Virus record (IMG/VR): IMGVR_UViG_3300028797_000009
Coordinates: 1-64,000 of that record
Reading direction: 5' to 3' (one strand)
From: a virus
Lineage: Duplodnaviria; Heunggongvirae; Uroviricota; Caudoviricetes
Length of the DNA: 64,000 bases
Made by a program: the position numbers and the translations under genes. The notes beneath the pieces were generated by a model. It was given only the letters and a program-made list of their open reading frames with translations, was not told the DNA's origin and did not search any database. Shown piece by piece: positions 3,170 to 30,973 of the stretch. Position 1 is the stretch's first letter, and each line of letters opens with the position of its first letter.

Positions 3170-3706
3170 TAGTTTTTTGAATTTTTCTTGGATTTCTGGG
3201 TCTGGGTATAATCTTTTTACTATATAAGCGAGGTCATCATCTTTAATATCTGGGTTGTAAAGGAGAAGGTCGCACCAATCTCTTTCGGTGATGAAAAATC
3301 CCCATTGGGTTTGAGCAATAATTTCCGGGCTTAATTTTTCTGCCACTTGGAGATGGTGTTTTTCTCCAAAAGATTTACATTCCACAAAACCGTCTGAATT
3401 GACAAGTCCATCTGGTGAATAACCGATATTGGAGAATTTGTCGTTAATGATAAATCCAGCATTGTAGATTGGAGTATATACTTCTGAATAAATTTCTTTT
3501 GAGTCGGCTTCTAGGATGTGCCCACGATATGTCCAATAATTTCCTCTGAAAGAATTTTCGTTTTTGGCTTTTTCTTCGAGGATTGATTGAGGGGAATGAC
3601 CTCGCAAAAGTTTAATAGCGTCTGTGCCAGTTAAGTATTGTTTGCGAAGGTTGTGCCACTCTTGTGAACCTTGTTTAACCTCGTCCTCTGGGATGATGTT
3701 AATCAT
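3158..3706 (-). CDS. YqaJ/lambda-exonuclease-like PD-(D/E)XK nuclease
   Basis: 182 aa. N-terminal QGSQEWHNLRKQYLTGTDAIKLL is typical of YqaJ-type viral recombination exonucleases. DGLVNSDGFVECKSF gives the D..E.K catalytic triad. Confidence 0.6.
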   Translation of the reverse strand: MINIIPEDEVKQGSQEWHNLRKQYLTGTDAIKLLRGHSPQSILEEKAKNENSFRGNYWTYRGHILEADSKEIYSEVYTPIYNAGFIINDKFSNIGYSPDGLVNSDGFVECKSFGEKHHLQVAEKLSPEIIAQTQWGFFITERDWCDLLLYNPDIKDDDLAYIVKRLYPDPEIQEKFKKLLEV

Positions 3707-4328
3707 TTTTCTTTGCTTTCATCCTAGCGATTAACTCGGCTTTACGGTTTGAACTATCTTTAATAATTTGTTCCGCTTCCGAATCGGTGAATTCTAGATT
3801 ATTTAAGTCAACATCAAGTTCTGGATAATATTGTTCAATAGCCATTTTCTCCCAATCTTCCGTTTTGTATGGGTTAGCAAAATCTGGAAGTTTTGGCTCC
3901 GTTGCGAAAGTCTTGAATTCGGTTAATGGGTACCATTGATTTGGGATATAGTAGAGATAACGACCAATGCCAAACTGAACTGCCGCCCTCTTTAATGCGT
4001 CCGAACAACCACCTTTGAATGGGGTGACTTTCTCGGTGTATTCGCCACCATCTGATTTTGTAATCCAAGTTCCGTCTGGCATACGAATACTTAATTCGCA
4101 AACTACACCTTTTTCGTATGGTGTCATTTTACATTGCCAGCCATTGATTCCGCAGACATCATCTAGTCTTTTTTGGACTTCACGGGAATCAATATAGAAA
4201 AGGGCGATTCCTTTTTTCTTATCTTTTGATGTAGCACCGACACGATATTTTACAAACTTCGGGTCGAATGGGTTTTTGAGCGCTTTGAGTAGTGCTTGCT
4301 CTGCTGTTAATTTTTCCGTTTCTTTCAT
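3699..4328 (-). CDS. Single-strand annealing protein, Rad52/Sak-like
   Basis: 209 aa. ALFYIDSREVQKRLDDVCGINGWQCKM resembles the Rad52/Sak core. Paired with the exonuclease immediately downstream, as in two-component recombinase modules. Confidence 0.5.
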   Translation of the reverse strand: MKETEKLTAEQALLKALKNPFDPKFVKYRVGATSKDKKKGIALFYIDSREVQKRLDDVCGINGWQCKMTPYEKGVVCELSIRMPDGTWITKSDGGEYTEKVTPFKGGCSDALKRAAVQFGIGRYLYYIPNQWYPLTEFKTFATEPKLPDFANPYKTEDWEKMAIEQYYPELDVDLNNLEFTDSEAEQIIKDSSNRKAELIARMKAKKND

Positions 4329-11211: not shown

Positions 11212-12084
11212 ATGCAGAAAATCATAATGTTGAAAGGATTGCCGGCTTCGGGGAAGAGTACTTGGGCTAGGCAAATGGTGCTGGATAATACCTCATTTGT
11301 GAGGGTTAGCAAGGATGATATTAGAAAAGATTTCTTGGGGGCTTATTCACAAAAGAAAGAGAAATTAGTCTTAAAATTGCGGGATTGTATTATTTTAGAA
11401 TCATTGAAAAACAAAAAGAGTGTGATTGTAGATGATACAAATTTGAACCCTATTCACGAGGAGCATTTAAGACAACTAGCAAAAGAAAATAATGTTGGGT
11501 TCGAGGTGAATGAATCCTTCCTAAAAGTAAGCCCAGAGGAGTGTGTAAAAAGAGATTTGGGCCGTCTAGATTCGGTTGGGGAAAGAGTCATTTATAAGAT
11601 GTATTATGATTATCTTGCCCCTGACCCGATTGTAAAAATTGAAAAAAGCAAAAAACCACGCTGTGTAATCTGTGATATTGATGGGACTTTGGCTCATAAT
11701 TTGAGTGGAAGAAATATCTATGATTACAGTCGGATTAAAGAAGATACCCCTGACCCATTGGTCTGTGCTGTGATTGACGCTTTGGATTTTACTTTTGGTG
11801 AGGATTATTTAGATATTATTATTGTTTCGGGTAGGGATGATTCCTGTCAACAAGAAACAGAAGAATGGTTAGAGAATAATGATATTCCTTATACCGCCCT
11901 GTTGATGCGTGAAACTGGGGATAAGAGAGATGATGCTGTTGTAAAAGAGGAAATCTATCATAAATATATTGAGCCGAATTATTGTGTTCTTGGCGTGATT
12001 GATGATAGGAATCGAGTAGTGCGTAAATGGGAATCGTTAGGCCTTAAAGTGATGAAGGTAGGAGGTTTATATAATGAGTTCTAA
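11212..12084 (+). CDS. pnk: Polynucleotide 5'-kinase / 3'-phosphatase (T4 Pnk-like)
   Basis: 290 aa. N-terminal P-loop LKGLPASGKSTWARQM is the kinase part. C-terminal HAD motif CVICDIDGTLAHN (DxDGT) and later VSGRDD form the phosphatase part. Architecture matches T4 Pnkp. Confidence 0.75.
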   Translation: MQKIIMLKGLPASGKSTWARQMVLDNTSFVRVSKDDIRKDFLGAYSQKKEKLVLKLRDCIILESLKNKKSVIVDDTNLNPIHEEHLRQLAKENNVGFEVNESFLKVSPEECVKRDLGRLDSVGERVIYKMYYDYLAPDPIVKIEKSKKPRCVICDIDGTLAHNLSGRNIYDYSRIKEDTPDPLVCAVIDALDFTFGEDYLDIIIVSGRDDSCQQETEEWLENNDIPYTALLMRETGDKRDDAVVKEEIYHKYIEPNYCVLGVIDDRNRVVRKWESLGLKVMKVGGLYNEF

Positions 12085-13933: not shown

Positions 13934-14299
13934 ATGGCAACAAATACAGTAGTCCTCGAAGGACGTTTAACAAAAAAACCAGAAATCAAAGCAACAAGTT
14001 CGGGAAAGAAAGTGTGTTCTTTCACTCTTGCGAATGATAAGAGGGGAAAAGAAGATACAAATTTCATTGATTGTACGGCTTGGGAAGGTCGTGGCGAAAC
14101 GATTGCTAAATACTTTGATAAAGGTAGCCAGATTGTAATTACCGGTCATTTGGACCAGCAAGTCTGGGAAAAAGATGGTCAAAAGCGAAGTAGACTAGAA
14201 GTCGTAGTAGATGATTTCAGTTTTATCGGTAAGCGTGAAGGGAAGAGCGAAGAAACTTCTTCTGATGACCATATTGATATTTCAGAGATTCCTTTCTAG
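13934..14299 (+). CDS. ssb: Single-stranded DNA-binding protein (SSB)
   Basis: 121 aa. OB-fold pattern VVLEGRLTKKPEIK...FIDCTAWEGRGE...VITGHL and an acidic tail ending DDHIDISEIPF (DIPF-type SSB C-terminus). Confidence 0.8.
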   Translation: MATNTVVLEGRLTKKPEIKATSSGKKVCSFTLANDKRGKEDTNFIDCTAWEGRGETIAKYFDKGSQIVITGHLDQQVWEKDGQKRSRLEVVVDDFSFIGKREGKSEETSSDDHIDISEIPF

Positions 14300-14443: not shown

Positions 14444-15070
14444 ATGAAAAGTCTTAAAGACGTTAAGATGGGTTGGGTAGCAGTTACCGCCATCGTTTCT
14501 TATGCGATTATCGCCGTGGTTACGGATATGTTCGCAAATAAAATGTTAAACATAGGTGGTCTAACCCTTGCTGGTGGTATTCTTTTGATTCCATTCAGTT
14601 TTACGATTAGGGATTTGATTCACAAGCAAATTGGCTTCAAGAATGTGAAGAAGGTAGTATGGGTTACTGCTTTAGTAAATCTTGTAGTAGCAATTTTGTT
14701 AATTGTTTTGGATTTGATTCCATCGGCGGTTCCTGGGCAACAGGAAGCATGGCATTCCCTTATGGGTGCTTCGTGGCGAGTAATTATTGCGTCATTTATT
14801 GCTCAGTTAGTGGCTGACCTTGGTAATACCTATGTCTATCAATGGGTGTGGGATAAATTAGGTAATAAACATGTATGGTTGAGAACTGTGGTTTCTAACC
14901 TTCCAGCAACATTCTTGGATTCAGCATTGTTTAGTTATATTGCCTTCTTGGGTGTATTGCCAGCAGATATTATCTGGGCTTCGGTGTTAAGTTCGTTCTT
15001 GGTAAAGTATGTGTTGTCGTTAGTAGCAACTCCGTTGACATATTTGAGCGAAGATAAAAAGAAGAAATAA
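14444..15070 (+). CDS. YhhQ/DUF165-family queuosine-precursor (preQ0/preQ1) transporter-like membrane protein
   Basis: 208 aa, multi-TM. DMFANKMLNIGGLTLAGGILLIPFSFTIRDLIHKQIG resembles the YhhQ core. It sits directly upstream of the queC/dpdA genes. Confidence 0.5.
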   Translation: MKSLKDVKMGWVAVTAIVSYAIIAVVTDMFANKMLNIGGLTLAGGILLIPFSFTIRDLIHKQIGFKNVKKVVWVTALVNLVVAILLIVLDLIPSAVPGQQEAWHSLMGASWRVIIASFIAQLVADLGNTYVYQWVWDKLGNKHVWLRTVVSNLPATFLDSALFSYIAFLGVLPADIIWASVLSSFLVKYVLSLVATPLTYLSEDKKKK

Positions 15071-15368: not shown

Positions 15369-15694
15369 ATAATACTTATGGGATTTCCTCAATTAAATTA
15401 TATGAGGAGATTCAACATAAATGCCCTCTTGGTGAGCAAGTAGGTGTCACAAAATATGAGATGACAATTCGCCCAGGTAAGAAGTTGGCTGAATTTATCG
15501 CTCTCCATTGGGAGATTCAAGAGATGATGGGACAAACCTTTACGCTTGAAAGTGGTGCGGCGAGAGTAATGGAAATTGTTAAAAAGTATTATTCAGACGC
15601 AAAAGAGATTAAAGTAAAAGCATCCTGCCCAACGAATAGGCATATGGCAGTTGATGTAGAAGTGGAATATAAGAATGAAAGTTCAACTTTATAG
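15317..15694 (+). CDS. QueF-like T-fold protein (possible QueF-L type)
   Basis: GTG start with aaaggagag RBS. HKCPLGEQVGVTKYEMTIRP lines up with the QueF CP.TGQPD...IEYIP region, but the E(S/L)K(S/A)hK NADPH motif is absent, as in QueF-L. Confidence 0.3.
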   Translation: MPGKINSLSEEEQKSYLNNTYGISSIKLYEEIQHKCPLGEQVGVTKYEMTIRPGKKLAEFIALHWEIQEMMGQTFTLESGAARVMEIVKKYYSDAKEIKVKASCPTNRHMAVDVEVEYKNESSTL

Positions 15695-16382
15695 TGGGGG
15701 GATGGATTCTTGGTTAATTAGCCATTTATGGAAGCCAGACTTAAAAATCTATATTGATATTCATGGGGATTATAGCGAGGCAGAAAAGAAAAGGTTGCCG
15801 GATGATGTAAAGATTATCGATATGCCACTTTTGGGGGAATTTGAATTACCAAACAAATTCGTTCCGTTGAGAAATCTCTATTTTATAATGATTGCTTCTC
15901 ACTATGGTGATGAGATTTGTCTTGGAGCAACTGCTGGTGATGGTAGTAAAGATAAAAATCTCGACTTTTTGAATTATATGGAAGATTTGCTCAACTTCTT
16001 CTGGAATGATAAAAAAGTTCATAAGACACTAAAAGTTGAGAAGAGATTTGCGAAGATGAGTAAGGGGGAGATTCTTCGGGAGTATCTAAAAATGGGTGGT
16101 TCGATTGAGGATGTGAGGAGAGAGTCTTTCTCTTGTTACACCCCTATTGATGACAAAGAGTGTTTTGATTGCTATCCTTGTTTCCGTAAGTTCGCTATGC
16201 TTCTTGCGAATGGTTGCGAGTATTCAGATGAAGAAATGGCGAAGATGTGGGATTTTGTCCAAAGAAAAATTATCCCAACAAAAGAGGAAGGCGGGTACGA
16301 AGGTACTTACTATACTGACCGTGGAGAAGAAAGTAAGGATTTGATAAAAGCAGTTGAAATGCTTAAAGAAAAGTATGCCTAA
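15675..16382 (+). CDS. queC: 7-cyano-7-deazaguanine synthase QueC-like
   Basis: 235 aa. PP-loop VQLYSGGMDS. C-terminal zinc-binding cluster CYTPIDDKECFDCYPCFRKFAML (four Cys, as in QueC). Confidence 0.7.
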   Translation: MKVQLYSGGMDSWLISHLWKPDLKIYIDIHGDYSEAEKKRLPDDVKIIDMPLLGEFELPNKFVPLRNLYFIMIASHYGDEICLGATAGDGSKDKNLDFLNYMEDLLNFFWNDKKVHKTLKVEKRFAKMSKGEILREYLKMGGSIEDVRRESFSCYTPIDDKECFDCYPCFRKFAMLLANGCEYSDEEMAKMWDFVQRKIIPTKEEGGYEGTYYTDRGEESKDLIKAVEMLKEKYA

Positions 16383-16710: not shown

Positions 16711-17531
16711 TGCTTTTATTCTTTGCTGGGGCTGAGGGGGATGATTTTGTAAAAATACTTCGGGATAATGGTGTTACTAATGCTCTCGAAAGTTTTTGGT
16801 CTCTAAAAATGAAGAACCCATGTCATCATCGTATATTTGAGAATCATCTGTTGGATTCGGGTGGTTTTGCTGCTAGGCAGCGTGGTGTGGAAGTTGATGT
16901 CGTAAAGTATGCTGAATATATTAAAAAATATGATGTGAAGTTTGCGTTTAATCTGGATGTGCGTGATTTAGATATTAGTTTGGCTAATCAGCGTTATTTA
17001 GAGAAGAATACTAATGCGTATATTATTCCGATTTATCACGGTCCGGAATGGGTGAATGAAGATACTAGGGATTTGTTGGAGTATTATATCGAGTTCTATC
17101 CATATATCGGGCTTGGTGGTATTGCTGGGAAAGAAACTGGTAAGCAAAATTTGGAGAGGTTTCTAAATTATGTGTTCAAGAGGACTAGGGACAAAACTAT
17201 GGTCCACGGCTTAGGTGTTACAAGTAAGAGGATGTTATATAATTATCCATTTGCGACTTGTGATTCTACGAGTTGGCTTGCCGTTAGCCAATATGGGAGA
17301 AGTGCTGTATATAGCGAAAATATGAGCAGGGTTCGTAACAAGCGTTTGAATTGGAAAGAGCGTATATTTGATGATGTTGTCTTTTATAAAAATTTGAATG
17401 ATGAGATTACGAGAATTTGGAAGAAAAGAGGGGTAAATTGGGGGGATAAATTAGACTATGAAAAATTAATTTCTATGAGGAAAGAAGCACCAAGTTATAG
17501 AGAATGGAAAGAAGGAAGAAATGCGAAATAA
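16710..17531 (+). CDS. dpdA: tRNA-guanine transglycosylase-like protein (DpdA-like 7-deazaguanine DNA transglycosylase)
   Basis: 273 aa. HLLDSGGFAA matches the TGT catalytic DSGGFQ motif; YIGLGGIAG matches the TGT substrate-pocket GLAVGG. No CxCxxC..H zinc site, as in phage and bacterial DpdA. Confidence 0.6.
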   Translation: MLLFFAGAEGDDFVKILRDNGVTNALESFWSLKMKNPCHHRIFENHLLDSGGFAARQRGVEVDVVKYAEYIKKYDVKFAFNLDVRDLDISLANQRYLEKNTNAYIIPIYHGPEWVNEDTRDLLEYYIEFYPYIGLGGIAGKETGKQNLERFLNYVFKRTRDKTMVHGLGVTSKRMLYNYPFATCDSTSWLAVSQYGRSAVYSENMSRVRNKRLNWKERIFDDVVFYKNLNDEITRIWKKRGVNWGDKLDYEKLISMRKEAPSYREWKEGRNAK

Positions 17532-18123
17532 AGATTTTGACCCGAGTAGGATAAAAAAGGTTTCAATTGATGATGTAGAACCCAACGATTATAATCCGAA
17601 GAAGAAGGATACGGCTGAATATAAAAAGATTGTGGAATCATTAAAATTGAATGGTTTGAAGCAACCTATTTTTGTTAGAGAAGTCGAAGAAAATGATAAA
17701 TATGTCATCGTTGATGGCGAGCAACGTTGGACAGCGGCGAAAGAGTTGGGGTATAAAGAAATTTATATCTACGATTTTGGGTATATCTCAGAAGAAGAAG
17801 CAAAGGCATTGACAATCTGGATGGAAGTCCAGGTGCCATTTGATGAGTTAGAATTGGCTACTTTAATTGTTGAGATGAAAGATTTAGATATTGATTTACC
17901 GTATACCAAAAAAGAGATTGATGATTTTGTGGCTATGGCTGATTTTGATTTCACTACGCCTGTTAAGGAGGCGAAACAGGATGATGGTTTAATGGAATTA
18001 AAGATTCGAATGACTAAATCCCAATTTGATTTCGTAAAAGATTGTGTAGATAAAGTGGCTAAAAGTAAAAATTGCGAGCAAGCAGAAGCCCTGATGATTT
18101 TGTGTGGAGGTGTAGATGAATAA
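17521..18123 (+). CDS. ParB-like nuclease-domain protein (DpdB-like?) paralog 1
   Basis: 200 aa. IFVREVEENDKYVIVDGEQRWTAAKELGY is the ParB/Srx GxxR-box region. Confidence 0.55.
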   Translation: MRNKDFDPSRIKKVSIDDVEPNDYNPKKKDTAEYKKIVESLKLNGLKQPIFVREVEENDKYVIVDGEQRWTAAKELGYKEIYIYDFGYISEEEAKALTIWMEVQVPFDELELATLIVEMKDLDIDLPYTKKEIDDFVAMADFDFTTPVKEAKQDDGLMELKIRMTKSQFDFVKDCVDKVAKSKNCEQAEALMILCGGVDE

Positions 18124-18733
18124 AGATTTTAACCCAGAGAATATTAAAAAAGTTCCAATCGAGTTGATTCACCCGAATGGATATAACCCAAAAGCAGTTG
18201 AGAGTAAAGAATATTATGATGTTCTTGAAAGCTTGAAACAAAATGGGTTGATGAGTTTTATTTTTGTTCGAGAAGTTGACGGGATAGATGGGTTCGAGAT
18301 TGTAGATGGTGAGCATAGGTATTTAGCCGCAAAAGAATTAGGTTATAGCGAGATGTATATTTATAATCTTGGTAGAATTTCCGAAGAAGAGGCAAAAGCC
18401 CTGACTTTGTGGTTTGAAGTTCAAGTTCCGTTCGATAATGTCGAGTTGGCTCCGATTGTGGTCGAGCTGACGAAATTGGATATTAAATTGCCTTATACAG
18501 AAGAGCAAATCGAAAAATTCTCCGAATTGCAGAAGTTTGATTTTGACGACTATGATGAGGATGAACCCGTAAAAGAAGAGGAAGGATTTAATAATTTTAC
18601 GGTTAGGGTAACGCAAGAACAGTTCAATTTTATTCAAAATAAAATTAAAGAAGTTATGGATTTTGAGGGGGTGAGCGAAGGGCGAGCGTTGGAATTGATT
18701 GTCGCCGATGGATTCGCAGGGTTTGAAGAGTAA
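18116..18733 (+). CDS. ParB-like nuclease-domain protein paralog 2
   Basis: 205 aa, clearly paralogous to the previous gene (IFVREVDGIDGFEIVDGEHRYLAAKELGY; identical domain order; acidic C-terminal tail). Confidence 0.55.
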   Translation: MNKDFNPENIKKVPIELIHPNGYNPKAVESKEYYDVLESLKQNGLMSFIFVREVDGIDGFEIVDGEHRYLAAKELGYSEMYIYNLGRISEEEAKALTLWFEVQVPFDNVELAPIVVELTKLDIKLPYTEEQIEKFSELQKFDFDDYDEDEPVKEEEGFNNFTVRVTQEQFNFIQNKIKEVMDFEGVSEGRALELIVADGFAGFEE

Positions 18734-21557: not shown

Positions 21558-22235
21558 ATGGGAACAACTAAACAAGGTGCTTTTGAGATGAAATATCATC
21601 ATATCGATGCACCAACAAAACAAGATGATGAATATGGCCGAGAACATCATAAAAGGATTTTAAGTCTTAATGATTTCCGAACGCCGTTATTAGAATATTT
21701 GAGCGATAAACCGTGGATTATGAAGCGTAAATTGGATGGCGAAAATTTGCGTGTTATGTGGGATGGCGAGCAAGCATTGTGGAATGGTAAAAGCGATAAT
21801 TTCCAATGTAGTTCGGCTTTAACGGATTATATGAATAATACTTTTCTTGAAGAAGTTTTTGAGGAAAAGTTTGGTCGAGATAAGCGAGTTTATATCTTCG
21901 GTGAGCATATGGGTCCGAAGTCGCAGGGGAATGAATTGGGATTAGGAAATAGTGAATGTGTTATTTATGATGTAAAGGTTAATGGCACTTGGTTAAAACC
22001 ATTGGATATTATTAGTGTGGCAGGGTATTTTGGGTGTAAAACTTGCTACGATTTTATGGGTGATATTCCAATGGATTTGAGTAAGACATTATCTGAGTAT
22101 ATTGCCGAGGTGTCCTCGGGGATTTATAAAGATTGGGAGGGGATTGTTTGCGTCCCATTAGTAGAATGCTGTTATCCAACAGGGGAGCGTGTGATTTGTA
22201 AGATTAAAAATAAAGACTATTTGAAAAAGGATTAG
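21558..22235 (+). CDS. Minimal ATP-dependent ligase-family nucleotidyltransferase (RNA/DNA ligase-like)
   Basis: 225 aa. Motif I MKRKLDGENLRV (KxDG), III RVYIFGEHMG, IV WEGIVCVP, V ICKIKNKDY. aaaaggagg RBS. Confidence 0.55.
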   Translation: MGTTKQGAFEMKYHHIDAPTKQDDEYGREHHKRILSLNDFRTPLLEYLSDKPWIMKRKLDGENLRVMWDGEQALWNGKSDNFQCSSALTDYMNNTFLEEVFEEKFGRDKRVYIFGEHMGPKSQGNELGLGNSECVIYDVKVNGTWLKPLDIISVAGYFGCKTCYDFMGDIPMDLSKTLSEYIAEVSSGIYKDWEGIVCVPLVECCYPTGERVICKIKNKDYLKKD

Positions 22236-23651: not shown

Positions 23652-23770
23652 TTTGACGATTATAGTAGTAATAATAATTTTGGCTTTAATTTCGAGTAAT
23701 TTTGGCGATAATGATGGTTGAAAAATATTAAATTTTCGTTTATAATGGAATAAAGAAAGGAGGATAAAAA

Positions 23771-23929
23771 ATGTTTGGATTAGCAACAGTAATCTTTGTG
23801 GTAGTAGGGATAATATTTGCCTGTCAGAACTTAGATATGCCGATGGCGAAAGCGTTATTGGCAATTGGGATTGTATGGGTAATAATATTATTTATCGAAG
23901 TGGCGAAGAAAACAGGAGAAAAGAAATAA
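23771..23929 (+). CDS. small membrane protein
   Basis: 52 aa: MFGLATVIFVVVGIIFACQNLDMPMAKALLAIGIVWVIILFIEVAKKTGEKK. Promoter ttataatgg and aaggagg RBS upstream. Confidence 0.35.
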   Translation: MFGLATVIFVVVGIIFACQNLDMPMAKALLAIGIVWVIILFIEVAKKTGEKK

Positions 23930-24124
23930 ATGGGTGTTCTATTAAGTTTGGATGGAGAAAAAGACGAAGGATTGATTCAAAAACTTCGGGCTTATGAAAT
24001 AACGAAGGAGCCAGAACTTGCCGTAGAAATCTGTGAGGATTTGTTGGATAAAATGCCAGATGAAGAACGGATTAACGATAGAATGGTATTCCAATCGAGT
24101 ATTTTGAGGGAGGATGAACGATGA
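23930..24124 (+). CDS. hypothetical protein
   Basis: 64-aa ORF. Confidence 0.35.
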   Translation: MGVLLSLDGEKDEGLIQKLRAYEITKEPELAVEICEDLLDKMPDEERINDRMVFQSSILREDER

Positions 24125-24277
24125 CCGAAGAACAAATTAATTTCTTCGTTGATTGGATTGAGGGGTGGAAGAAGAGAAAGAGTATATCGGAAGCATTTGA
24201 TATTGTGGAAACGCTTTATTCGGTATTAACCGAAGAAGAGGGTGAAGAAGAATAAAAGGTTAAAAGAAAGGGTAATT

Positions 24278-25084
24278 ATGCCGAATTGGGTTATAAATAA
24301 AGTAAGATTTGAAAGTGAGAAGGTCTTAAAAGATTGTATTTCTAAAAGGAAATATAAGAATTATGAGAACACGGCTTGCGAGGAAGAATATTTCGATTTT
24401 GAAAAAGTCCTTCCAATGCCAAAGAGTTTAAGTCTTATAAGTGGAACAATTGAACAAGAAGCAGTTTATTATGCCTTGTTTATGATGAATCAGGATGAAT
24501 ACCTAAAAACTGTCGAGATGTTAAAGAAAGCACCTCGATTTTTCTACGGAAATTATTACGAGGAGATTGAATCGTATAATAAGCGCAGGCTAGATATAGA
24601 CAGATTGAAACAATTGGATGAAGATATTAAAAACTTTGTGTCTGCTCCAAAAGATAAAAGAGATTCATTGAAAACTTTTGCGTCATTGAATGATATAGAT
24701 TTTGATGGACTAGGTATTCATAATTTAGAAGAATTAGGAAGAGCTTATATTAAAAATGTCCAAGATTATGGCGAAAGTAATTGGTATGATTGGCATAATA
24801 AAAACTGGGGGACAAAATGGAATGCTTGTGAAACGATTGTTTTGAATGAAAATGAGGTTGAGTTCCAGACAGCGTGGTCAACGCCAGAGCCGATTATAAA
24901 GGCGATTAGTAAGAAATATCATACGAGGGTGGAAGTAGAATATGCTGATGAAGATTTAGGCTCAAATTGTGGTTCGTATGTTTATAATTGTGGCGAATTG
25001 GTGGATGATGCGGATGGCAACTATGAATTTGCTTGCGAAACTTGGGGATATGACCCAGAGGAGATGAAGGAGGAAGATGAATAA
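24278..25084 (+). CDS. hypothetical protein
   Basis: In-frame part of ORF 24242..25084; ATG at 24278 follows AAAGAAAGGGTAATT. Confidence 0.45.
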   Translation: MPNWVINKVRFESEKVLKDCISKRKYKNYENTACEEEYFDFEKVLPMPKSLSLISGTIEQEAVYYALFMMNQDEYLKTVEMLKKAPRFFYGNYYEEIESYNKRRLDIDRLKQLDEDIKNFVSAPKDKRDSLKTFASLNDIDFDGLGIHNLEELGRAYIKNVQDYGESNWYDWHNKNWGTKWNACETIVLNENEVEFQTAWSTPEPIIKAISKKYHTRVEVEYADEDLGSNCGSYVYNCGELVDDADGNYEFACETWGYDPEEMKEEDE

Positions 25085-25274
25085 TTTGTTTGGCGAGCCA
25101 ATGGGGGATTATGGTAAAAGAGCTTATCTTGAAAATGGCGAGATTAAAGAGGATGTTAGATTTTTAAGTGAAAAACTTGATGCTCTTGTGGGATATTTTG
25201 GGTTGAAATTTGTTAAGGATGATTACGGCGAGGTATTTGTTATAAAAAATAAAGACTTGGGAGGTGAAGAATGA
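25077..25274 (+). CDS. hypothetical protein
   Basis: 65-aa ORF. Confidence 0.35.
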   Translation: MNNLFGEPMGDYGKRAYLENGEIKEDVRFLSEKLDALVGYFGLKFVKDDYGEVFVIKNKDLGGEE

Positions 25275-25483
25275 GTTATGTAGCAGAAGTCGAAGATATT
25301 AGTAAGGCATATGAAGAGTATCGGCAAGCGTCAGAACAATTAAGTAATGTCTTATATAGTGCGAAGGATAATGCTCAACTTTCTATTGACCAAGTGTTAA
25401 CTTGTATGCAACTAAGTGCTCAATTAACGGCTGATAAGTATAAGATTGAGCGAGATATAAAAGAATTGTTAGGAGGAGAATAA
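25271..25483 (+). CDS. hypothetical protein
   Basis: 70-aa ORF; C-terminus ...KELLGGE*. Confidence 0.35.
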   Translation: MSYVAEVEDISKAYEEYRQASEQLSNVLYSAKDNAQLSIDQVLTCMQLSAQLTADKYKIERDIKELLGGE

Positions 25484-25625
25484 TGGCACTTCTATTCTTA
25501 ATTGGGATGGGCTTTATAGGGTTGGCGTTTGTTTGTGTGTTTTGTTGGCTATTTGTAGTGGTTTTGAATGTAATCTTGCTGGGGATTGAAAAATTACTTA
25601 CTTGGATTTTTGGGAGGAAAAAGTA

Positions 25626-25841
25626 ATGGCTTATAAAATTGAGATTTGGAGATACCACGAAGTTGTAGATGAGTACGAGGATGAATCTGTTGAGAATGTT
25701 TTGAAGTGGTATAGGAATCATTGGAAAAGAACATACGATTTTGGTGATTGTTTCTTTGATTTGCTTGAAAATGGTAAAGAGGTGGATTGGGATACACAAT
25801 ATGAGCTTGGGTTTTTTAGAGATGAAGGGGAGGAGTGGTGA
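25626..25841 (+). CDS. hypothetical protein
   Basis: In-frame part of ORF 25602..25841 (MAYKIEIW...). Confidence 0.35.
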   Translation: MAYKIEIWRYHEVVDEYEDESVENVLKWYRNHWKRTYDFGDCFFDLLENGKEVDWDTQYELGFFRDEGEEW

Positions 25842-26080
25842 TGGCTACTTTGGCTATAAATTATAACCCTTGTGTTTGTATTACTCAAAGCCATAAAGAA
25901 GTAAAATTAAAACAGCATAAGTGCCCGAATTGTGGGGCGAGTATAGATATAAGAAAATTTGTGCCAGATGGGTATGAAGTAGATAGATATGGTAATAAAA
26001 GTGCTGTGTTTTATGAGCGGAATTGCGTGAAATGTGATTTCTGTCGTTCTAAATTTGAACTTTGTGAGGAGGAAAAATGA
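25835..26080 (+). CDS. zinc-finger protein
   Basis: 81 aa; CPNCGAS...CVKCDFC. Confidence 0.4.
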   Translation: MVMATLAINYNPCVCITQSHKEVKLKQHKCPNCGASIDIRKFVPDGYEVDRYGNKSAVFYERNCVKCDFCRSKFELCEEEK

Positions 26081-26280
26081 GAAATAAAGATTTTTATAGT
26101 AGACTGCCTGGTATGGTATGTGTCCTATTGGACGATATTATTGAAAAATATGGTGATAGAGAAGGGTTTGATGAAGCGTGGGAGAATTACCGTTCACATA
26201 TTCTATCTTCAAGTATGGATGATATGAGGATGCCGCAAGCCTTTTTCAAAGATGTTATGGCTAATAAGGAGGAAGAATGA
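26077..26280 (+). CDS. hypothetical protein
   Basis: 67 aa; ends ...NKEEE*. Confidence 0.35.
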   Translation: MRNKDFYSRLPGMVCVLLDDIIEKYGDREGFDEAWENYRSHILSSSMDDMRMPQAFFKDVMANKEEE

Positions 26281-26612
26281 CAAGTTATGAATTTGAATAT
26301 GCACTAGTATATATAGCCGAGCAAATTATTAAAACATTTGGGAAGGATGTCGGGGTGCAAGTGTTGAAGCAAAAACCAGCTGAGCCACTTTTCAAGGATG
26401 AGAAAATCAGGGAAGCAGTTAAGAATTGGGTATTAACAAATTATAAAAACCACATGATTATTGAATTTGATAGCAATATGAATGGATTTTATATGTTCTT
26501 GGATAATACTGATTTAAGTTTATGTGGTATTACATTCCAACCAGATATTGAGTTAGGTTTAGAAGAAAGAGAATACACCTTCGCCGAACTCTGTGGGGAG
26601 TCAGAGCAATGA
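26277..26612 (+). CDS. hypothetical protein
   Basis: 111 aa; ends ...ELCGESEQ*. Confidence 0.4.
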   Translation: MTSYEFEYALVYIAEQIIKTFGKDVGVQVLKQKPAEPLFKDEKIREAVKNWVLTNYKNHMIIEFDSNMNGFYMFLDNTDLSLCGITFQPDIELGLEEREYTFAELCGESEQ

Positions 26613-26845
26613 ATATAATAAATAGAGTAGCAGATTTTGCAGATAGTGTTGTCAAAAATGCAAAAGACCAACAGAGTCATGTTCGGCTAATATTAGATGA
26701 TACTTCAAGAGAACATTATATTCACGAAGATTATGTAAAGAAAGTTTTGATGGAGATGTTGGCTATTGAATTATTGAGTGTTAAAAGGGAATCAACAGAG
26801 CGACTTATAAATAAGATTAGAGAACTCTGCGGGGAGGAGGAATGA
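26609..26845 (+). CDS. hypothetical protein
   Basis: 78 aa; ends ...RELCGEEE*. Confidence 0.4.
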   Translation: MNIINRVADFADSVVKNAKDQQSHVRLILDDTSREHYIHEDYVKKVLMEMLAIELLSVKRESTERLINKIRELCGEEE

Positions 26846-27204
26846 GCAAAAAAGTAGAAATGTATAAATGCGATGGCTGTGGGCATCCTTACCCAACGGA
26901 ATATGATGCAAAACGCTGTGAGTTTGAACACCAAAAACTTGACTTTGCGAATTATATGTTAGAACAAGGTGCAAATCTTGGTTACATCAAATATGAAACA
27001 GCTACGCTCCATGATTTACCTGATGAATTGAAAGATGTAACGAAAGATACGCTCTTTAAGATTAGTTATTTGCAATGTAATGATGGCTATGTGTATAGAG
27101 TAATTAGTATAAAATACAGTGGTGTCGAAGTCCAAAACTCAGAAGATTATTACAAAGCTACAGTTAAATACACGGAATTAGTCAGGGGGATGGAGAAGAA
27201 ATGA
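26842..27204 (+). CDS. hypothetical zinc-ribbon protein
   Basis: 120 aa; CDGCGHPYPTEYDAKRCEFEH. Confidence 0.4.
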   Translation: MSKKVEMYKCDGCGHPYPTEYDAKRCEFEHQKLDFANYMLEQGANLGYIKYETATLHDLPDELKDVTKDTLFKISYLQCNDGYVYRVISIKYSGVEVQNSEDYYKATVKYTELVRGMEKK

Positions 27205-27401
27205 GTATTAATACAGTTATTAGGCATCACAACAATATATTAAAAGATGCTAAAGAATCTGTTGAAGAGGCAATTAGGTGTGTTAAGCATGCAAAAGATT
27301 ATCGTTGGGAAGAGGGTTTTTATCCGTACGATGCCATTATAGGAGAGTGTGAAATTGTTATCCAACGTATAAACGAACTCTGCGGGGAGGAGGAAGAATG
27401 A
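27201..27401 (+). CDS. hypothetical protein
   Basis: 66 aa; ends ...NELCGEEEE*. Confidence 0.4.
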   Translation: MSINTVIRHHNNILKDAKESVEEAIRCVKHAKDYRWEEGFYPYDAIIGECEIVIQRINELCGEEEE

Positions 27402-27580
27402 AGAAGCCTAAAATCTTTAATGAGTGGTTTGATATGGTCTATCCTGTTTCAGAATGGGGTGAATATGAAACCTCTGAAATTTGGAGTGAAGAAGAACGTG
27501 ATAAATGTTACGATTTCTTGGAAGAATTATTGAAGGTCGAGAATTTAGACGAACATTGTGGAGAGGAGGGAGAAGAATGA
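27398..27580 (+). CDS. hypothetical protein
   Basis: 60 aa; ends ...EHCGEEGEE*. Confidence 0.35.
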   Translation: MKKPKIFNEWFDMVYPVSEWGEYETSEIWSEEERDKCYDFLEELLKVENLDEHCGEEGEE

Positions 27581-27744
27581 TTTATAGAAGTAGTAAGCGT
27601 GAGTTCGATGCTGGAGTGTTAGTATTAGTCGGTTTGATTATTTTTACAGCCATTATCTGTGTTACGACAATTGTATCACGCTCCGCTGATTATAAACATA
27701 TCGAAAAGATGGAACAGATTAAAACTTGTAAGGAGGAAGAATGA
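27577..27744 (+). CDS. small membrane protein
   Basis: In-frame part of ORF 27505..27744: MIYRSSKREFDAGVLVLVGLIIFTAIICVTTIV..., ends ...KTCKEEE*. Confidence 0.35.
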   Translation: MIYRSSKREFDAGVLVLVGLIIFTAIICVTTIVSRSADYKHIEKMEQIKTCKEEE

Positions 27745-27908
27745 AACCTACTAAACGAGCAAAATATTATATCGCAGGGTATAAGGATGGATTTTGGCAA
27801 GGGTATCATTACGCTATTAGCAAGCTTATTGATGGCAATGATGCAGACGAGATGGCAACTGAGAAAACTAAACACATAACTGATTTTAAGCTGAAGGAAA
27901 AAGAATGA
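27741..27908 (+). CDS. hypothetical protein
   Basis: 55 aa (below the track cutoff): MKPTKRAKYYIAGYKDGFWQGYHYAISKLIDGNDADEMATEKTKHITDFKLKEKE. Confidence 0.3.
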   Translation: MKPTKRAKYYIAGYKDGFWQGYHYAISKLIDGNDADEMATEKTKHITDFKLKEKE

Positions 27909-28306
27909 GAGAACAAAAGTTTAGGGTGTGGGATAAAGACCTCGCTAAATATCTTGAAGGATGCGAAATTGACGGCCTGATGGCCGAACTTTCCTCTGAA
28001 GGTGATGGTAGAGGTATAGTTATTAAACAGATATGTCCTGCTCGCTATAAATTTGAGCAATACACAGGTCTAAAAGACAAGAATGAAAAAGAGATATATG
28101 ATGGGGATATTGTAGAGGCACGCTGGTATAGAGCAAAACACGCACGATTCGATACGAAAGGTAAAGTCAAGTTTAGCGAAGGTTGGTTCTATATAGATGA
28201 TGACCCAGACGGAGATGATAGCCTTGGTGTGCCGATTCATAACTGTTATAACATTAAGGTTATCGGTAATGTACACGAAAACCCTGAACTATTGGAGGAA
28301 GAATGA
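27905..28306 (+). CDS. YopX-family protein (paralog 1)
   Basis: 133 aa. KFRVWDK...YTGLKDKNEKEIYDGDIVE...VIGNVHENPELL. Confidence 0.6.
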   Translation: MREQKFRVWDKDLAKYLEGCEIDGLMAELSSEGDGRGIVIKQICPARYKFEQYTGLKDKNEKEIYDGDIVEARWYRAKHARFDTKGKVKFSEGWFYIDDDPDGDDSLGVPIHNCYNIKVIGNVHENPELLEEE

Positions 28307-28608
28307 GTAAGTATGGAAAATGCCATTGTCAAGGTGTAAATTTTGGCTCGTATGGGAATCAAGTTAGTATGAGGCATCCATCTGGGGAATGGGTGTGTAT
28401 TGATTGTTGTATTGCAACAGAAATAGCTGACTTATGGCATGAAGGTGTAAATACTTTAGGAAGCTGTTGTGGGCATAGGAAGCTCGCCCCTACTGTCGTG
28501 GTGGCTAAGGAAAGCTATCAGAAGATGACAGAATTAGGCTATCAGAGCAAAACTAATAAATTCGGGGTAGTTGAGTGGCAACTAAAAACTAAATGGGGTA
28601 AAGAATGA
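28303..28608 (+). CDS. Cys-rich hypothetical protein
   Basis: 101 aa with 9 Cys: CHCQG..CIDCC..CCGH. Confidence 0.4.
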   Translation: MSKYGKCHCQGVNFGSYGNQVSMRHPSGEWVCIDCCIATEIADLWHEGVNTLGSCCGHRKLAPTVVVAKESYQKMTELGYQSKTNKFGVVEWQLKTKWGKE

Positions 28609-29042
28609 GAAGTTTGAAGTTTAGAGCATGGGATAAAGTCACAAAGAGATATTGGAATGTTGGTGGGCTTGGTTTTGAAAAAGATAGGCTTATCGAGGTG
28701 TATCTTGATAATTATCCTACAACTTTAGAGGGTAATGAAGATTGTAAAAAACCAGACGAGGTTATTCTCGAGCAATATATAGGCCTGAAAGATAAGGATG
28801 GTAATGAGATATACGAGGGGGATATAGTGCAAATAGATAGTATAGATGAACTGAGGGTGGGTTTTGTCGACCTATTATATGACCAGTATTGTATTGTATA
28901 TGGCGAGGATGATGAGGGGCGTAAAATCGTGGCTGAGTTTTATTACTATTCTAAGCCAGAGGAAAATTGTAAGGTTATCGGTAACATTAATGAAAATCCT
29001 GAGTTATTGGAGGGCGAGAATGAGCAAAAAAACAGAGGATGA
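28605..29042 (+). CDS. YopX-family protein (paralog 2)
   Basis: 145 aa. LKFRAWDK...YIGLKDKDGNEIYEGDIVQ...VIGNINENPELL. Confidence 0.6.
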   Translation: MRSLKFRAWDKVTKRYWNVGGLGFEKDRLIEVYLDNYPTTLEGNEDCKKPDEVILEQYIGLKDKDGNEIYEGDIVQIDSIDELRVGFVDLLYDQYCIVYGEDDEGRKIVAEFYYYSKPEENCKVIGNINENPELLEGENEQKNRG

Positions 29043-29349
29043 AAAAGCAATTGATGATTTTGTGGAATTGCTAAAAAATATGGTTGAAATTCCTGGCAAG
29101 AGAACTGTGATGATTGATGGTCGCTGGTTTGAGATTGACACTAATTTCGACCCTCCACTTGTTAAAGAATTGGAGGAAGATATTCCTTCGCCATATTGTG
29201 ATGTCTGTGGACATTGTGGGGAGATTGGTTGCTGTGGGGTTTCGTGTTTTTTGGAAAACCACGTTAGAGGAAAGACTAATTGTAGATATGAAGATGAGAT
29301 TATAGATGAAATTGAAGAGTGGTTTGATATGGAGAAGGAGGAAAAATAA
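29020..29349 (+). CDS. Cys-rich hypothetical protein
   Basis: In-frame part of ORF 28864..29349; the ATG at 29020 follows a ggagggcgagaATG RBS. Contains CDVCGHCGEIGCCGVSC. Confidence 0.4.
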   Translation: MSKKTEDEKAIDDFVELLKNMVEIPGKRTVMIDGRWFEIDTNFDPPLVKELEEDIPSPYCDVCGHCGEIGCCGVSCFLENHVRGKTNCRYEDEIIDEIEEWFDMEKEEK

Positions 29350-29430
29350 CTTATATTAATGCTCGAAAGAGTATATTGTCGATTGACAGTATAAATAAAA
29401 AATAGTACCATTGAAAAGAAGGAGATATGA

Positions 29431-30333
29431 ATGAGTAAGAAGAAAAACAAATTTCTAAAACATTTTATGTTTTCGCCAATCGTGGATAAGAAAAGGCCAG
29501 GCGATTTTGATGGCGATATGACTACTTATGAGATGTACGAGGAGGCAAGGGAAAAATCTTTTGGCAGGGTTGTTAGAACTTATGTAGAACTTGTCGCATT
29601 GCTTATTGTAGTTATTATTGTATTGACGGGTTCTTGGTTCACTGTTGGTGCTGGTGAGATTGGTGTAGTCACAAGGTTTGGCGAAGTCCAACGAATCGCC
29701 GAGTCTGGTTTCAATTTTAAGTTGCCATTGGTTGATTCTGTGGTGATTATGGAAACACGTATCCAGAAAGAAGAAGTAAAATCTTCGGCGGTAACGAAGG
29801 ATTTGCAGGATGCAGAAGTCACCTTAGCGTTGAATTATTCGATTGATAAAGAAACTGCGTTGAAGTTGTATAAAGAAGTAGGTATTAATTATAAAGATAA
29901 TATTATTAATCCTGTCCTTCACGAATCAGTAAAAGCAGGGACGGCACAATATACAGCCGAAGGCTTAATTACTAGTCGTTCAGAGGTAAAAGAGAAGATT
30001 TTGGAAGTAGTTAAAAATCGTCTCGAAGGTTATGGAATTGTAATTTCTGATTTGAATATTACAAACCTAAATTTCTCTGATGCTTTTAATTCTGCAATTG
30101 AGGAAAAAGCAGTCGCTCAACAACAAGTTGAAAAAGCAAAACAGGATTTGGAAAAGGTAAAGATTGAGGCAGAACAGAAGATTGCGAAAGCCCAAGCAGA
30201 AGCCGAAGCACAACGGCTACAGCAACAAACGCTCACCGAACTAATGATTAAAAAAATGTGGATTGAGAAATGGAACGGTGAGTTGCCAAAAACTAGTGCA
30301 GGGGATTCTCAGTTTTTAATCGACCTCAACTAG
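29431..30333 (+). CDS. SPFH/band-7 (prohibitin/HflKC-like) membrane protein
   Basis: 300 aa. N-terminal TM VELVALLIVVIIVLTGSWF, band-7 core GEIGVVTRFGEVQRIAESGFNFKLPLVDSV, then a long Ala/Gln/Glu-rich coiled coil. Confidence 0.65.
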   Translation: MSKKKNKFLKHFMFSPIVDKKRPGDFDGDMTTYEMYEEAREKSFGRVVRTYVELVALLIVVIIVLTGSWFTVGAGEIGVVTRFGEVQRIAESGFNFKLPLVDSVVIMETRIQKEEVKSSAVTKDLQDAEVTLALNYSIDKETALKLYKEVGINYKDNIINPVLHESVKAGTAQYTAEGLITSRSEVKEKILEVVKNRLEGYGIVISDLNITNLNFSDAFNSAIEEKAVAQQQVEKAKQDLEKVKIEAEQKIAKAQAEAEAQRLQQQTLTELMIKKMWIEKWNGELPKTSAGDSQFLIDLN

Positions 30334-30657: not shown

Positions 30658-30734
30658 CAGGGAGTAGAAAAGTTGGAGTTTTCGCCTCGCCTGGAACGAG
30701 GAGGTCGCAAGTTCAAGTCTTGCCTCCCTGACCA
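30658..30734 (+). tRNA. tRNA, anticodon TGG (Pro-like), atypical anticodon loop
   Basis: Hand fold: acceptor cagggag/ctccctg, A73, CCA encoded; D stem gaaa/tttc; anticodon stem cctcg/cgagg with loop cctggaa; T arm gcaag-ttcaagt-cttgc. C33 and A37 are unusual for tRNA-Pro. Confidence 0.55.
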
Positions 30735-30743
30735 ATATAGATT

Positions 30744-30820
30744 GGCTCGCTAGCCCAACTGGTAGAGGCATATGTCTTAGGAACATATTAGTCAGAGTTC
30801 GAATCTCTGGTGAGCCACCA
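30744..30820 (+). tRNA. tRNA, anticodon TAG (Leu-reading) with a short (class-I-like) variable arm
   Basis: Acceptor ggctcgc/gtgagcc (one G-U), A73, CCA; anticodon stem tatgt/acata, loop cttagga (U33, UAG, G37); variable region only ~5 nt; T arm cagag-ttcgaat-ctctg. Confidence 0.5.
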
Positions 30821-30824
30821 ATAT

Positions 30825-30899
30825 TGGCTAGTAGCTCAATGGTAGAGCATTCGGCTGTTAACCGAAGGGTTACAGGTTCGACCCCTGTCTAGCCAGCCA
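30825..30899 (+). tRNA. tRNA-Asn (GTT)
   Basis: Acceptor tggctag/ctagcca, G73, CCA; D arm gctc-aatggta-gagc; anticodon stem ttcgg/ccgaa, loop ctgttaa; T arm acagg-ttcgacc-cctgt. Confidence 0.7.
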
Positions 30900-30973
30900 A
30901 GGTTCCTAGTTCAATGGTAGAATGAAAGTCTCCAAAACTTTTGATGGTAGTTCGAATCTATCGGAGCCTGCCA
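30900..30973 (+). tRNA. tRNA-Trp (CCA)
   Basis: Acceptor aggttcc/ggagcct (one G-U), G73, CCA; anticodon stem aaagt/acttt, loop ctccaaa; T arm atggt? then agttcgaatct. Confidence 0.6.

Follow-up and report, generated by a model that had tools for sequence, protein, structure and literature searches.

Why should neighbouring phage genes with dissimilar bodies end in the same nucleotides, exactly where the next gene begins? The question is raised by positions 1 to 64,000 of the IMG/VR virus record IMGVR_UViG_3300028797_000009 (hereafter the window), part of an 85.7-kb phage contig of 37.5% G+C that encodes a large terminase and four tRNAs. The forward strand of the window carries, at 23771-29349, an array of about 20 small genes that mostly overlap and leave almost no space between them, as delimited from the open reading frame (ORF) list and the gene junctions. 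At five junctions of the array, the last codons of one gene specify an E-rich protein end of the ELC or EHC type, contain the ribosome-binding site (RBS) of the next gene and run into an ATGA in which stop and start overlap. We propose that the junction couples translation and at the same time serves as a short-homology linker for the in-frame exchange of single-gene cassettes, and we put the probability of this reading at roughly 0.55.

Dual coding at the gene junctions

The first-pass annotation held that the same bases encode C-terminal residues, a Shine-Dalgarno site and an overlapping stop/start, and this is directly visible in the array. ATGA overlaps of 4 nt occur at thirteen junctions between 24121 and 28605; the rest of the 64 kb holds only about three more, as counted with a rough gene caller. 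GGAGG, AGGAGG or AAGGAGG lies inside the upstream ORF, 3-8 nt 5' of the ATG (junctions from a simple gene caller). The ATGA overlap demands that the last sense codon end in A, and a GGAGG-type site then reads GAG GAG GAA (E-E-E) or GGA GGT (G-G). Therefore, the overlap and the RBS, set in a fixed frame of the upstream gene, force an acidic, E-rich tail, and protein ends such as EEE, GEE and KEEE are explained by the RBS frame without any protein function. From the same arrangement we infer that the downstream genes are translationally coupled to their upstream neighbours.

The recurrence of the junction sequence is real. There are two copies of the exact 21-mer GAACTCTGCGGGGAGGAGGAA, at 26822 and 27375, against an expectation of 0 (100 shuffles). 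The degenerate 15-mer GAACWYTGYGRRGAG occurs five times (26057, 26586, 26822, 27375 and 27551) against 0.13 expected, each time at a gene 3' end, although this statistic is partly circular because the pattern was drawn from the same five sites. GARGARGARTGA is present five times, against 0.16 expected. The genes that end at the five sites, all on the forward strand, encode a 79-residue zinc-ribbon-like protein (25841-26080, ending in FELCEEEK; junction 26057-26080, GAACTTTGTGAGGAGGAAAAATGA), a 111-residue protein (26277-26612, ending in EYTFAELCGESEQ; junction 26586-26612), a 78-residue ORFan (26609-26845, ending in IRELCGEEE; junction 26822-26845, the first copy of the 21-mer followed by TGA), a 66-residue protein (27201-27401, ending in INELCGEEEE; junction 27375-27401, with the second copy) and a 60-residue protein (27398-27580, ending in DEHCGEEGEE; junction 27551-27580, GAACATTGTGGAGAGGAGGGAGAAGAATGA). 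The 66-residue gene is the right half of a two-gene cassette (26842-27401), and its junction is the right junction of that cassette; the left half is a 120-residue gene (26842-27204).

The five ELC/EHC-type junctions are not consecutive, being interrupted by unrelated junctions at 26277 (upstream protein ending in NKEEE) and 27201 (ending in GMEKK). The "at least eight consecutive junctions" counted originally are thus an overcount, and eight is reached only by pooling three tail types. Among the sequences pooled were TTATTGGAGG variants, which encode ENPELLE, the conserved end of each of two YopX paralogs. Paralog 1 (27905-28306, forward strand; PF09643, E 4.5e-23, 82.1 bits) ends in ENPELLEEE, with the junction GAACTATTGGAGGAAGAATGA. 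Paralog 2 (28605-29042, forward strand; PF09643, E 9.8e-24, 84.2 bits) does not have the stop/start overlap that had been placed at 29020: the ATGA there is no stop for this gene, which reads through it and overlaps the next gene by 23 nt. Both PF09643 matches are full-length, with a gathering cut-off of 22.4 bits, and the two paralogs match each other at E 3e-16. YopX proteins of two other loci, L019 (1584-1955) and L219 (junction 988-1014), end in ENPELCGEEE(E) instead of ENPELLEEE. These tails are hybrids of the two junction types, which have GAACT.T..GAGGA.GAATGA in common.

A junction of this kind might also act as an RNA element, in which the bases upstream of the RBS fold and mask the Shine-Dalgarno site, or otherwise regulate translation, until the upstream ribosome arrives. 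The minimum-energy folds of several junctions do contain a 4-bp hairpin, CUCU-GCGG-(G/A)GAG, but it is the only stem-loop found at the junctions, the fold energies are no better than those of shuffles (z -0.19 to +1.33), the CTA variant of the Leu codon disrupts the stem, and Rfam matches were only to tRNAs. We consider an RNA element very improbable. Programmed frameshifting at the junction was dropped on inspection, as GAGGAGGAAGAATGA holds no slippery heptamer.

The ELCG protein family and the same junction on unrelated genes

A scan of IMG/VR with back-translated ELCGEE returned 85 matches in 76 loci. About 62 of the 85 lie at gene ends, 7-12 codons or less from a stop, and about 55 of those encode (DGE)xYTIxELCGEEEE, the C-terminus of a single protein family, in which alternative N-terminal modules precede a central block, EPLIKDEKIRKAVRAWAE, and the conserved tail with YTIxELCG. 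The 111-residue protein of the window (26277-26612) is a member: it aligns with a family protein of locus L042 (BLAST E 9e-26), its central block reads AEPLFKDEKIREAVKNWV, and its C-terminal end consists of YTIxELCG with a short acidic tail behind it. Among 1.84 billion cluster representatives, a profile search yielded 529 members at E <= 0.001, 111 of them at E <= 1e-10. The family, flagged here, has no significant match in Pfam, PHROG or NCBIfam and is absent from GenBank phages (tblastn, 50,697 records). It is itself mosaic, with at least three alternative N-modules (beginning MKLRNKKTGEI, MSKYKGLFTFDEDNHRYVP and MTSYEFERALVYIAEQIIKTFGKD). Often there are 2-3 copies per contig, and often they adjoin YopX genes (loci L001-L076, L160 and L188-L252).

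ELCG lies within the last 25 residues of 145 of 163 family proteins gathered by homology or profile search, not by the DNA motif. The residues after it vary: EEEE in 58, EEE in 22, and others such as KGENDGMY, GGE, ESEQ and VDDD. Therefore, ELCG is conserved at the protein level in its family, and the acidic end follows the junction. Wobble positions in the ELCG codons vary as well (TGC/TGT; CTC/CTA/CTT). An AF2 model (pLDDT 71.7, moderate) shows YTF as part of a strand, AELCG as a short helix and the acidic end beyond it as disordered; it has no fold match in BFVD at E <= 0.001.

The other two ELCG-bearing genes of the array are a different matter. For genes 26609-26845 and 27201-27401, alignment to the family is confined to the last 10-11 residues (hhalign, probability 30-33%), and their BLAST similarity to it covers 15 residues only, with no homology of the gene bodies. 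A search of 5.8 billion proteins with gene 26609-26845 returned only the gene itself, and IMG/VR holds no homolog. Gene 27201-27401 has 14 homologs at 73-89% identity and no tblastn match among the GenBank phage records. Elsewhere the same tail is found on a KGG-repeat protein, helix-turn-helix proteins, YopX proteins and several small ORFans.

At the nucleotide level, the exact 27-mer GAACTCTGYGGRGAGGAGGAAGAATGA is present in 69 copies in 65 stretches of metagenome DNA, where the chance expectation for its 25 fully specified bases is effectively zero, and these copies precede 52 different six-residue N-termini. Among 101 non-redundant junctions, the upstream bodies fall into 12 BLAST clusters and the downstream genes into 61. 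Of the upstream bodies, 76 belong to the main family and 4 to the family of gene 27201-27401, and the rest form one pair and nine singletons. A rival explanation is plain paralogy, with the genes as diverged duplicates, or chance likeness from a strong RBS only. It is correct that the two YopX genes are true paralogs and that E-rich tails follow from the RBS frame. However, the other gene bodies are dissimilar beyond the last 10-15 residues, and the exact 21-mer and 27-mer are far beyond chance. For the ELCG junctions this explanation is largely refuted, and we give it next to no weight.

A functional peptide tag would account for the likeness in another way: ELCGEEE(E) would be a C-terminal short linear motif for partner binding, targeting or degradation, selected on several unrelated proteins. 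The presence of ELCG in 145 of the 163 family proteins whatever follows it, the free wobble positions and the modelled short helix with a disordered end all fit a tag, as does the retention of ELCG in most homologs of gene 27201-27401. On the other hand, Cys is replaced by Ile or Leu in three of these 14 homologs, and the motif is internal in two. Moreover, the DNA is retained where it is not translated, as in three relics of the motif: in L003 (position 1266) there are 5 in-frame codons before the motif, in L168 a TGA directly precedes TGCGGAGAGG, and in L050 there are 11 codons before the junction. Many adjacent junctions have the same RBS without ELC (ILKGEEEE, FFGEEEE and ELKGEEEE), and the peptide string ELCGEEE has no match in the literature searched. 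Of the shared C-terminal tag suggested by the first-pass annotation, protein-level conservation is seen within one family; as a tag common to unrelated proteins we judge it unlikely. A zinc knuckle was also considered and rejected. C-x-L-C-G occurs in some zinc-ribbon proteins (L158, L153 at 14011-14196, and window gene 25841-26080), and a few of the ELCG tails may be CxxCG knuckles by coincidence.

The RBS core alone, GGAGAGGAGGAAGAATGA, is found after about 16 unrelated gene ends. There is thus a continuum from the bare RBS core to the ELCG-extended island.

Breakpoints in related phages and a possible mechanism of exchange

In related contigs, shared cassettes end at these junctions. L156 matches window positions 26833-27402 at 89.7% nucleotide identity, spanning both genes of the cassette 26842-27401. 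The homology begins in the left RBS and stops 1 nt past the right TGA. Three further contigs have only gene 27201-27401 in common with the window, and the homology stops at 27401 (L153 and L157) or 27396 (L154). In nine contexts, genes of the 27201-27401 family have nine different right neighbours. Of eight left neighbours, one is common to the window and L156 only.

Larger rearrangements are seen in L161 and L162, where homologs of window genes stand in the order tail of 25841-26080, YopX gene 27905-28306, 27201-27401, two novel genes, 27398-27580 and 26077-26280, so that in L162 the homolog of 26077-26280 comes after that of 27398-27580. The five novel joints are all placed at the RBS/ATGA, where an overlap junction is restored each time. 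At one L162 joint, the switch falls within 17-20 nt common to the EHCG and ELCE junctions, and the resulting protein has the hybrid tail EHCGEEEK, with EHCG from gene 27398-27580 and EEEK from gene 25841-26080. In L160, the N-module of an ELCG-family gene has been swapped, and homology with the window runs from the internal core block (26382) to ELCG (26598). The edges of this swap at the conserved block and at ELCG indicate that conserved islands in general coincide with exchange points. Two proteins, P0008 and P0009, read ELCGEEE followed in frame by 21 residues and KEKEEE; the extension looks like a fusion scar.

The proposal in the first-pass annotation that the junction is a cassette-shuffling boundary therefore stands as far as position is concerned: the motif lies at gene boundaries in related and unrelated phage contigs, shared cassettes end at it, and its partners are highly diverse. 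That the motif causes the exchanges as a homology substrate, rather than merely marking them, is our inference. Illegitimate recombination followed by selection for intact genes would also give breakpoints at gene borders, with the motif travelling passively as the initiation region of the following gene. In accordance with such a passive marker, L003 and L015 have the same downstream gene, MSDW(V/I)TNE, and different upstream sequence; L028, in which a KGG-repeat body is joined to DGYTIAELCGEEEE, looks like a deletion or fusion event; and the copies of the motif do not clearly evolve in concert. Random breakpoints, however, would rarely re-create the overlap at five of five novel joints of L162 without a spacer or truncated remnant. 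Nor would they readily place one L162 switch inside 17-20 nt common to two junctions, and the N-module swap of L160 likewise begins inside a conserved block. We regard the passive marker as possible but doubtful.

Several points weigh against the linker half of our reading. Selection for intact genes should place breakpoints at gene borders in any mosaic phage region, so that the L156 and L161/L162 data are no proof of exchange driven by homology. The motif itself served as the query that led to most of the loci, and its apparent sharp left edge is inflated as a result. The codon bias of the tail is no stronger than that of the family's internal conserved block, so no extra constraint at the nucleotide level is seen. 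Two copies in the same genome do not resemble each other clearly more than copies from different genomes do (p = 0.21 over 27 nt); the same comparison over 21 nt gives p = 0.009, at a length chosen post hoc and with only 10 pairs. Finally, an island of 21-27 nt is at or below the minimum homology of about 30 bp cited for Red-beta (PMC3945230).

A candidate enzyme for short-homology exchange is encoded in the window itself. The product of 3699-4328 (reverse strand) is predicted to be a single-strand annealing protein of the Rad52/22 family (PF04098, E 7.8e-17; 62 bits, gathering cut-off 20.3), and relatives encode ERF and YqaJ. Rad52-like phage recombinases have been found to drive exchange where homology is short and diverged (De Paepe et al. 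2014, PMC3945230).

Combining these elements, we suggest the following course of events. The accessory genes would form a polycistronic block, joined by a standard junction in which a strong GGAGG-type RBS stands 4-8 nt ahead of an ATG that shares bases with the upstream TGA. With the RBS inside the upstream gene and in a fixed frame, its Glu or Gly codons give the E-rich tails, a step that can be read from the sequence. ELCG is the last conserved structured element of an abundant family, and its codons, abutting the RBS, extend the junction to the 27-nt island, which is found in many phages from the same habitats. On recombining into arrays, gene bodies would inherit the island, either in frame or as an untranslated relic. 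Any two loci with the island would then offer short homology for exchange, probably through the Rad52-like annealing protein, and an exchange there would swap one side and leave the frame, the RBS and the stop/start overlap intact. A stronger form of the proposal, in which the island is a dedicated, selected exchange site, integron-like by way of annealing recombination but with translational coupling preserved, and/or ELCGEEEE is a C-terminal signal by which a common phage or host partner recognises many unrelated accessory proteins, seems improbable to us.

The array, its surroundings and known systems

Four public assemblies hold the contig sequence at 100% identity, and independent gene calls on these public copies give the same gene list for the array. 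The array is also 100% identical in all strain variants of the contig, which consequently carry no information on the presence or absence of cassettes. Among the 50,697 GenBank phage records the window has no close relative, and only 47-nt YopX or tRNA matches were returned. A scan for the host gave only two matches in metagenome-assembled genomes, one from a member of Clostridia and one from a bin labelled Saccharibacteria.

The array is probably one transcription unit. Promoter-like sites bound it at 23718-23746 and 29383-29411, as consensus matches in a promoter scan. The proteins of the matching gene lists measure 65, 70, 47, 71, 79, 67, 111, 78, 120, 66, 60, 55, 55, 133, 101, 145 and 109 residues. 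The first of the 55-residue proteins (27577-27744, forward strand) is of membrane type and ends in KTCKEEE at an ATGA junction; its homolog in L153 ends in KTCQEEEE. A protein with a DUF1281_C (Api92-like ferredoxin-like) domain is encoded inside the array at 24278-25084 (forward strand), about 0.8 kb upstream of the first ELC-type junction, and has a relative in L051 at 62% identity. In L185, an Acb2/Tad1-hairpin (anti-CBASS / anti-Thoeris sponge-like) protein (2225-2374) is encoded two genes downstream of a homolog of gene 27201-27401, a hint that such arrays carry anti-defence cargo.

Downstream of the array lie a Band_7/SPFH gene (29431-30333) and, shortly after it, a tRNA cluster (30658-30973, forward strand) for Pro-TGG, Leu-TAG, Asn-GTT and Trp-CCA. 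Synteny by way of the Band_7 gene was tried and abandoned, since the genes upstream in the best IMG/VR relative (L077, 64% identity) are unrelated.

Elsewhere in the window, two RNA-ligase-family proteins and a polynucleotide kinase/phosphatase (988-1989 on the reverse strand, 11212-12084 and 21558-22235 on the forward strand) form an RNA-repair set, which points to the mending of tRNAs attacked by host anticodon nucleases. At 14444-15070 and 15675-16382 (forward strand) lie genes for a Vut_1 (queuosine-precursor transporter-like) protein and a QueC-like protein, which may belong to a 7-deazaguanine pathway for DNA or tRNA modification. Two adjacent ParB_N-domain proteins are encoded at 17521-18123 and 18116-18733 (forward strand). 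The first of them ends in LMILCGGVDE at an overlap junction, a Cys-Gly-RBS-type tail outside the array. Two very large ORFs (48273-52328, 1351 residues, and 57660-61667, 1335 residues, both forward) have near-identical ends, NTLYGVYNV and NTLYGVYS, and probably encode paralogous tail or fibre proteins. From 4000 to 46000, G strongly exceeds C on the coding (forward) strand, with a skew of +0.26 to +0.46 that drops after about 46 kb.

How phages reshuffle blocks of small accessory genes, often ORFans and often including anti-defence genes, is a long-standing question. Conserved linkers were postulated decades ago, but clear examples are few, the best known being the promoter-early stem-loops (PeSLs) of T4-type phages. 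The window provides a candidate linker that lies within coding sequence and combines a protein end, an RBS and a stop/start, so that an exchange there would automatically yield a framed, coupled array. As it occurs in more than 100 non-redundant places, with 12 kinds of upstream body and 61 kinds of downstream gene, the hypothesis is directly testable.

In the modular theory of lambdoid phages by Susskind and Botstein, short conserved linkers at module junctions are said to be the sites of homologous exchange, and boundary sequences have been reported for HK620-type phages. The window junction resembles these linkers as a short conserved sequence between otherwise unrelated modules. Lambdoid linkers, however, are mostly intergenic or at gene starts and belong to temperate coliphages, whereas the window linker is a dual-coding C-terminus/RBS/ATGA that joins single small genes in more than 100 places in uncultivated phages. 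The ATGA stop/start overlap is textbook translational coupling in phage and bacterial operons, with the same 4-nt overlap and a Shine-Dalgarno site inside the upstream gene; no 27-mer is known to be conserved there across unrelated gene pairs and genomes.

Integron cassettes (attC/IntI) offer an analogy only. They too form an array of small, promoterless, exchangeable cassettes bounded by a recurring site, but the window junctions have no attC-like inverted repeat or hairpin, no integrase domain was found among the window proteins scanned (a subset of the window ORFs), and exchange would presumably proceed by general or annealing recombination. The relaxed recombination attributed to Rad52-like proteins (PMC3945230) is similar in that a Rad52-family protein is encoded and short islands of higher identity border the mosaic segments. 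The islands here measure only 21-27 nt (within the family, up to about 40 nt), at or below the figure of roughly 30 bp quoted for Red-beta.

Of the systems described, the PeSL of T4-type phages, a repeated regulatory motif that borders ORFans and for which modular shuffling has been proposed (Arbiol et al. 2010, PMC2839356; Comeau et al. 2014, PMC4122927), comes closest. Both are short repeated motifs at ORFan borders in hyperplastic regions that end in a Shine-Dalgarno site and a start codon, and for both recombination between copies has been proposed. As with PeSLs, the window motif borders ORFan genes and coincides with the endpoints of insertions, deletions and replacements between relatives. 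Even so, the window junction is not a PeSL. No sigma-70-type promoter coincides with the junctions (promoter-like sites in the region number 50, against 43.5 +/- 6.5 in shuffles), and no stable stem-loop is present there. PeSLs are intergenic and combine a sigma-70 promoter with a terminator stem-loop, whereas the window element lies in the upstream coding sequence and encodes its C-terminus. A PeSL thus preserves transcriptional autonomy, and the window junction preserves translational coupling.

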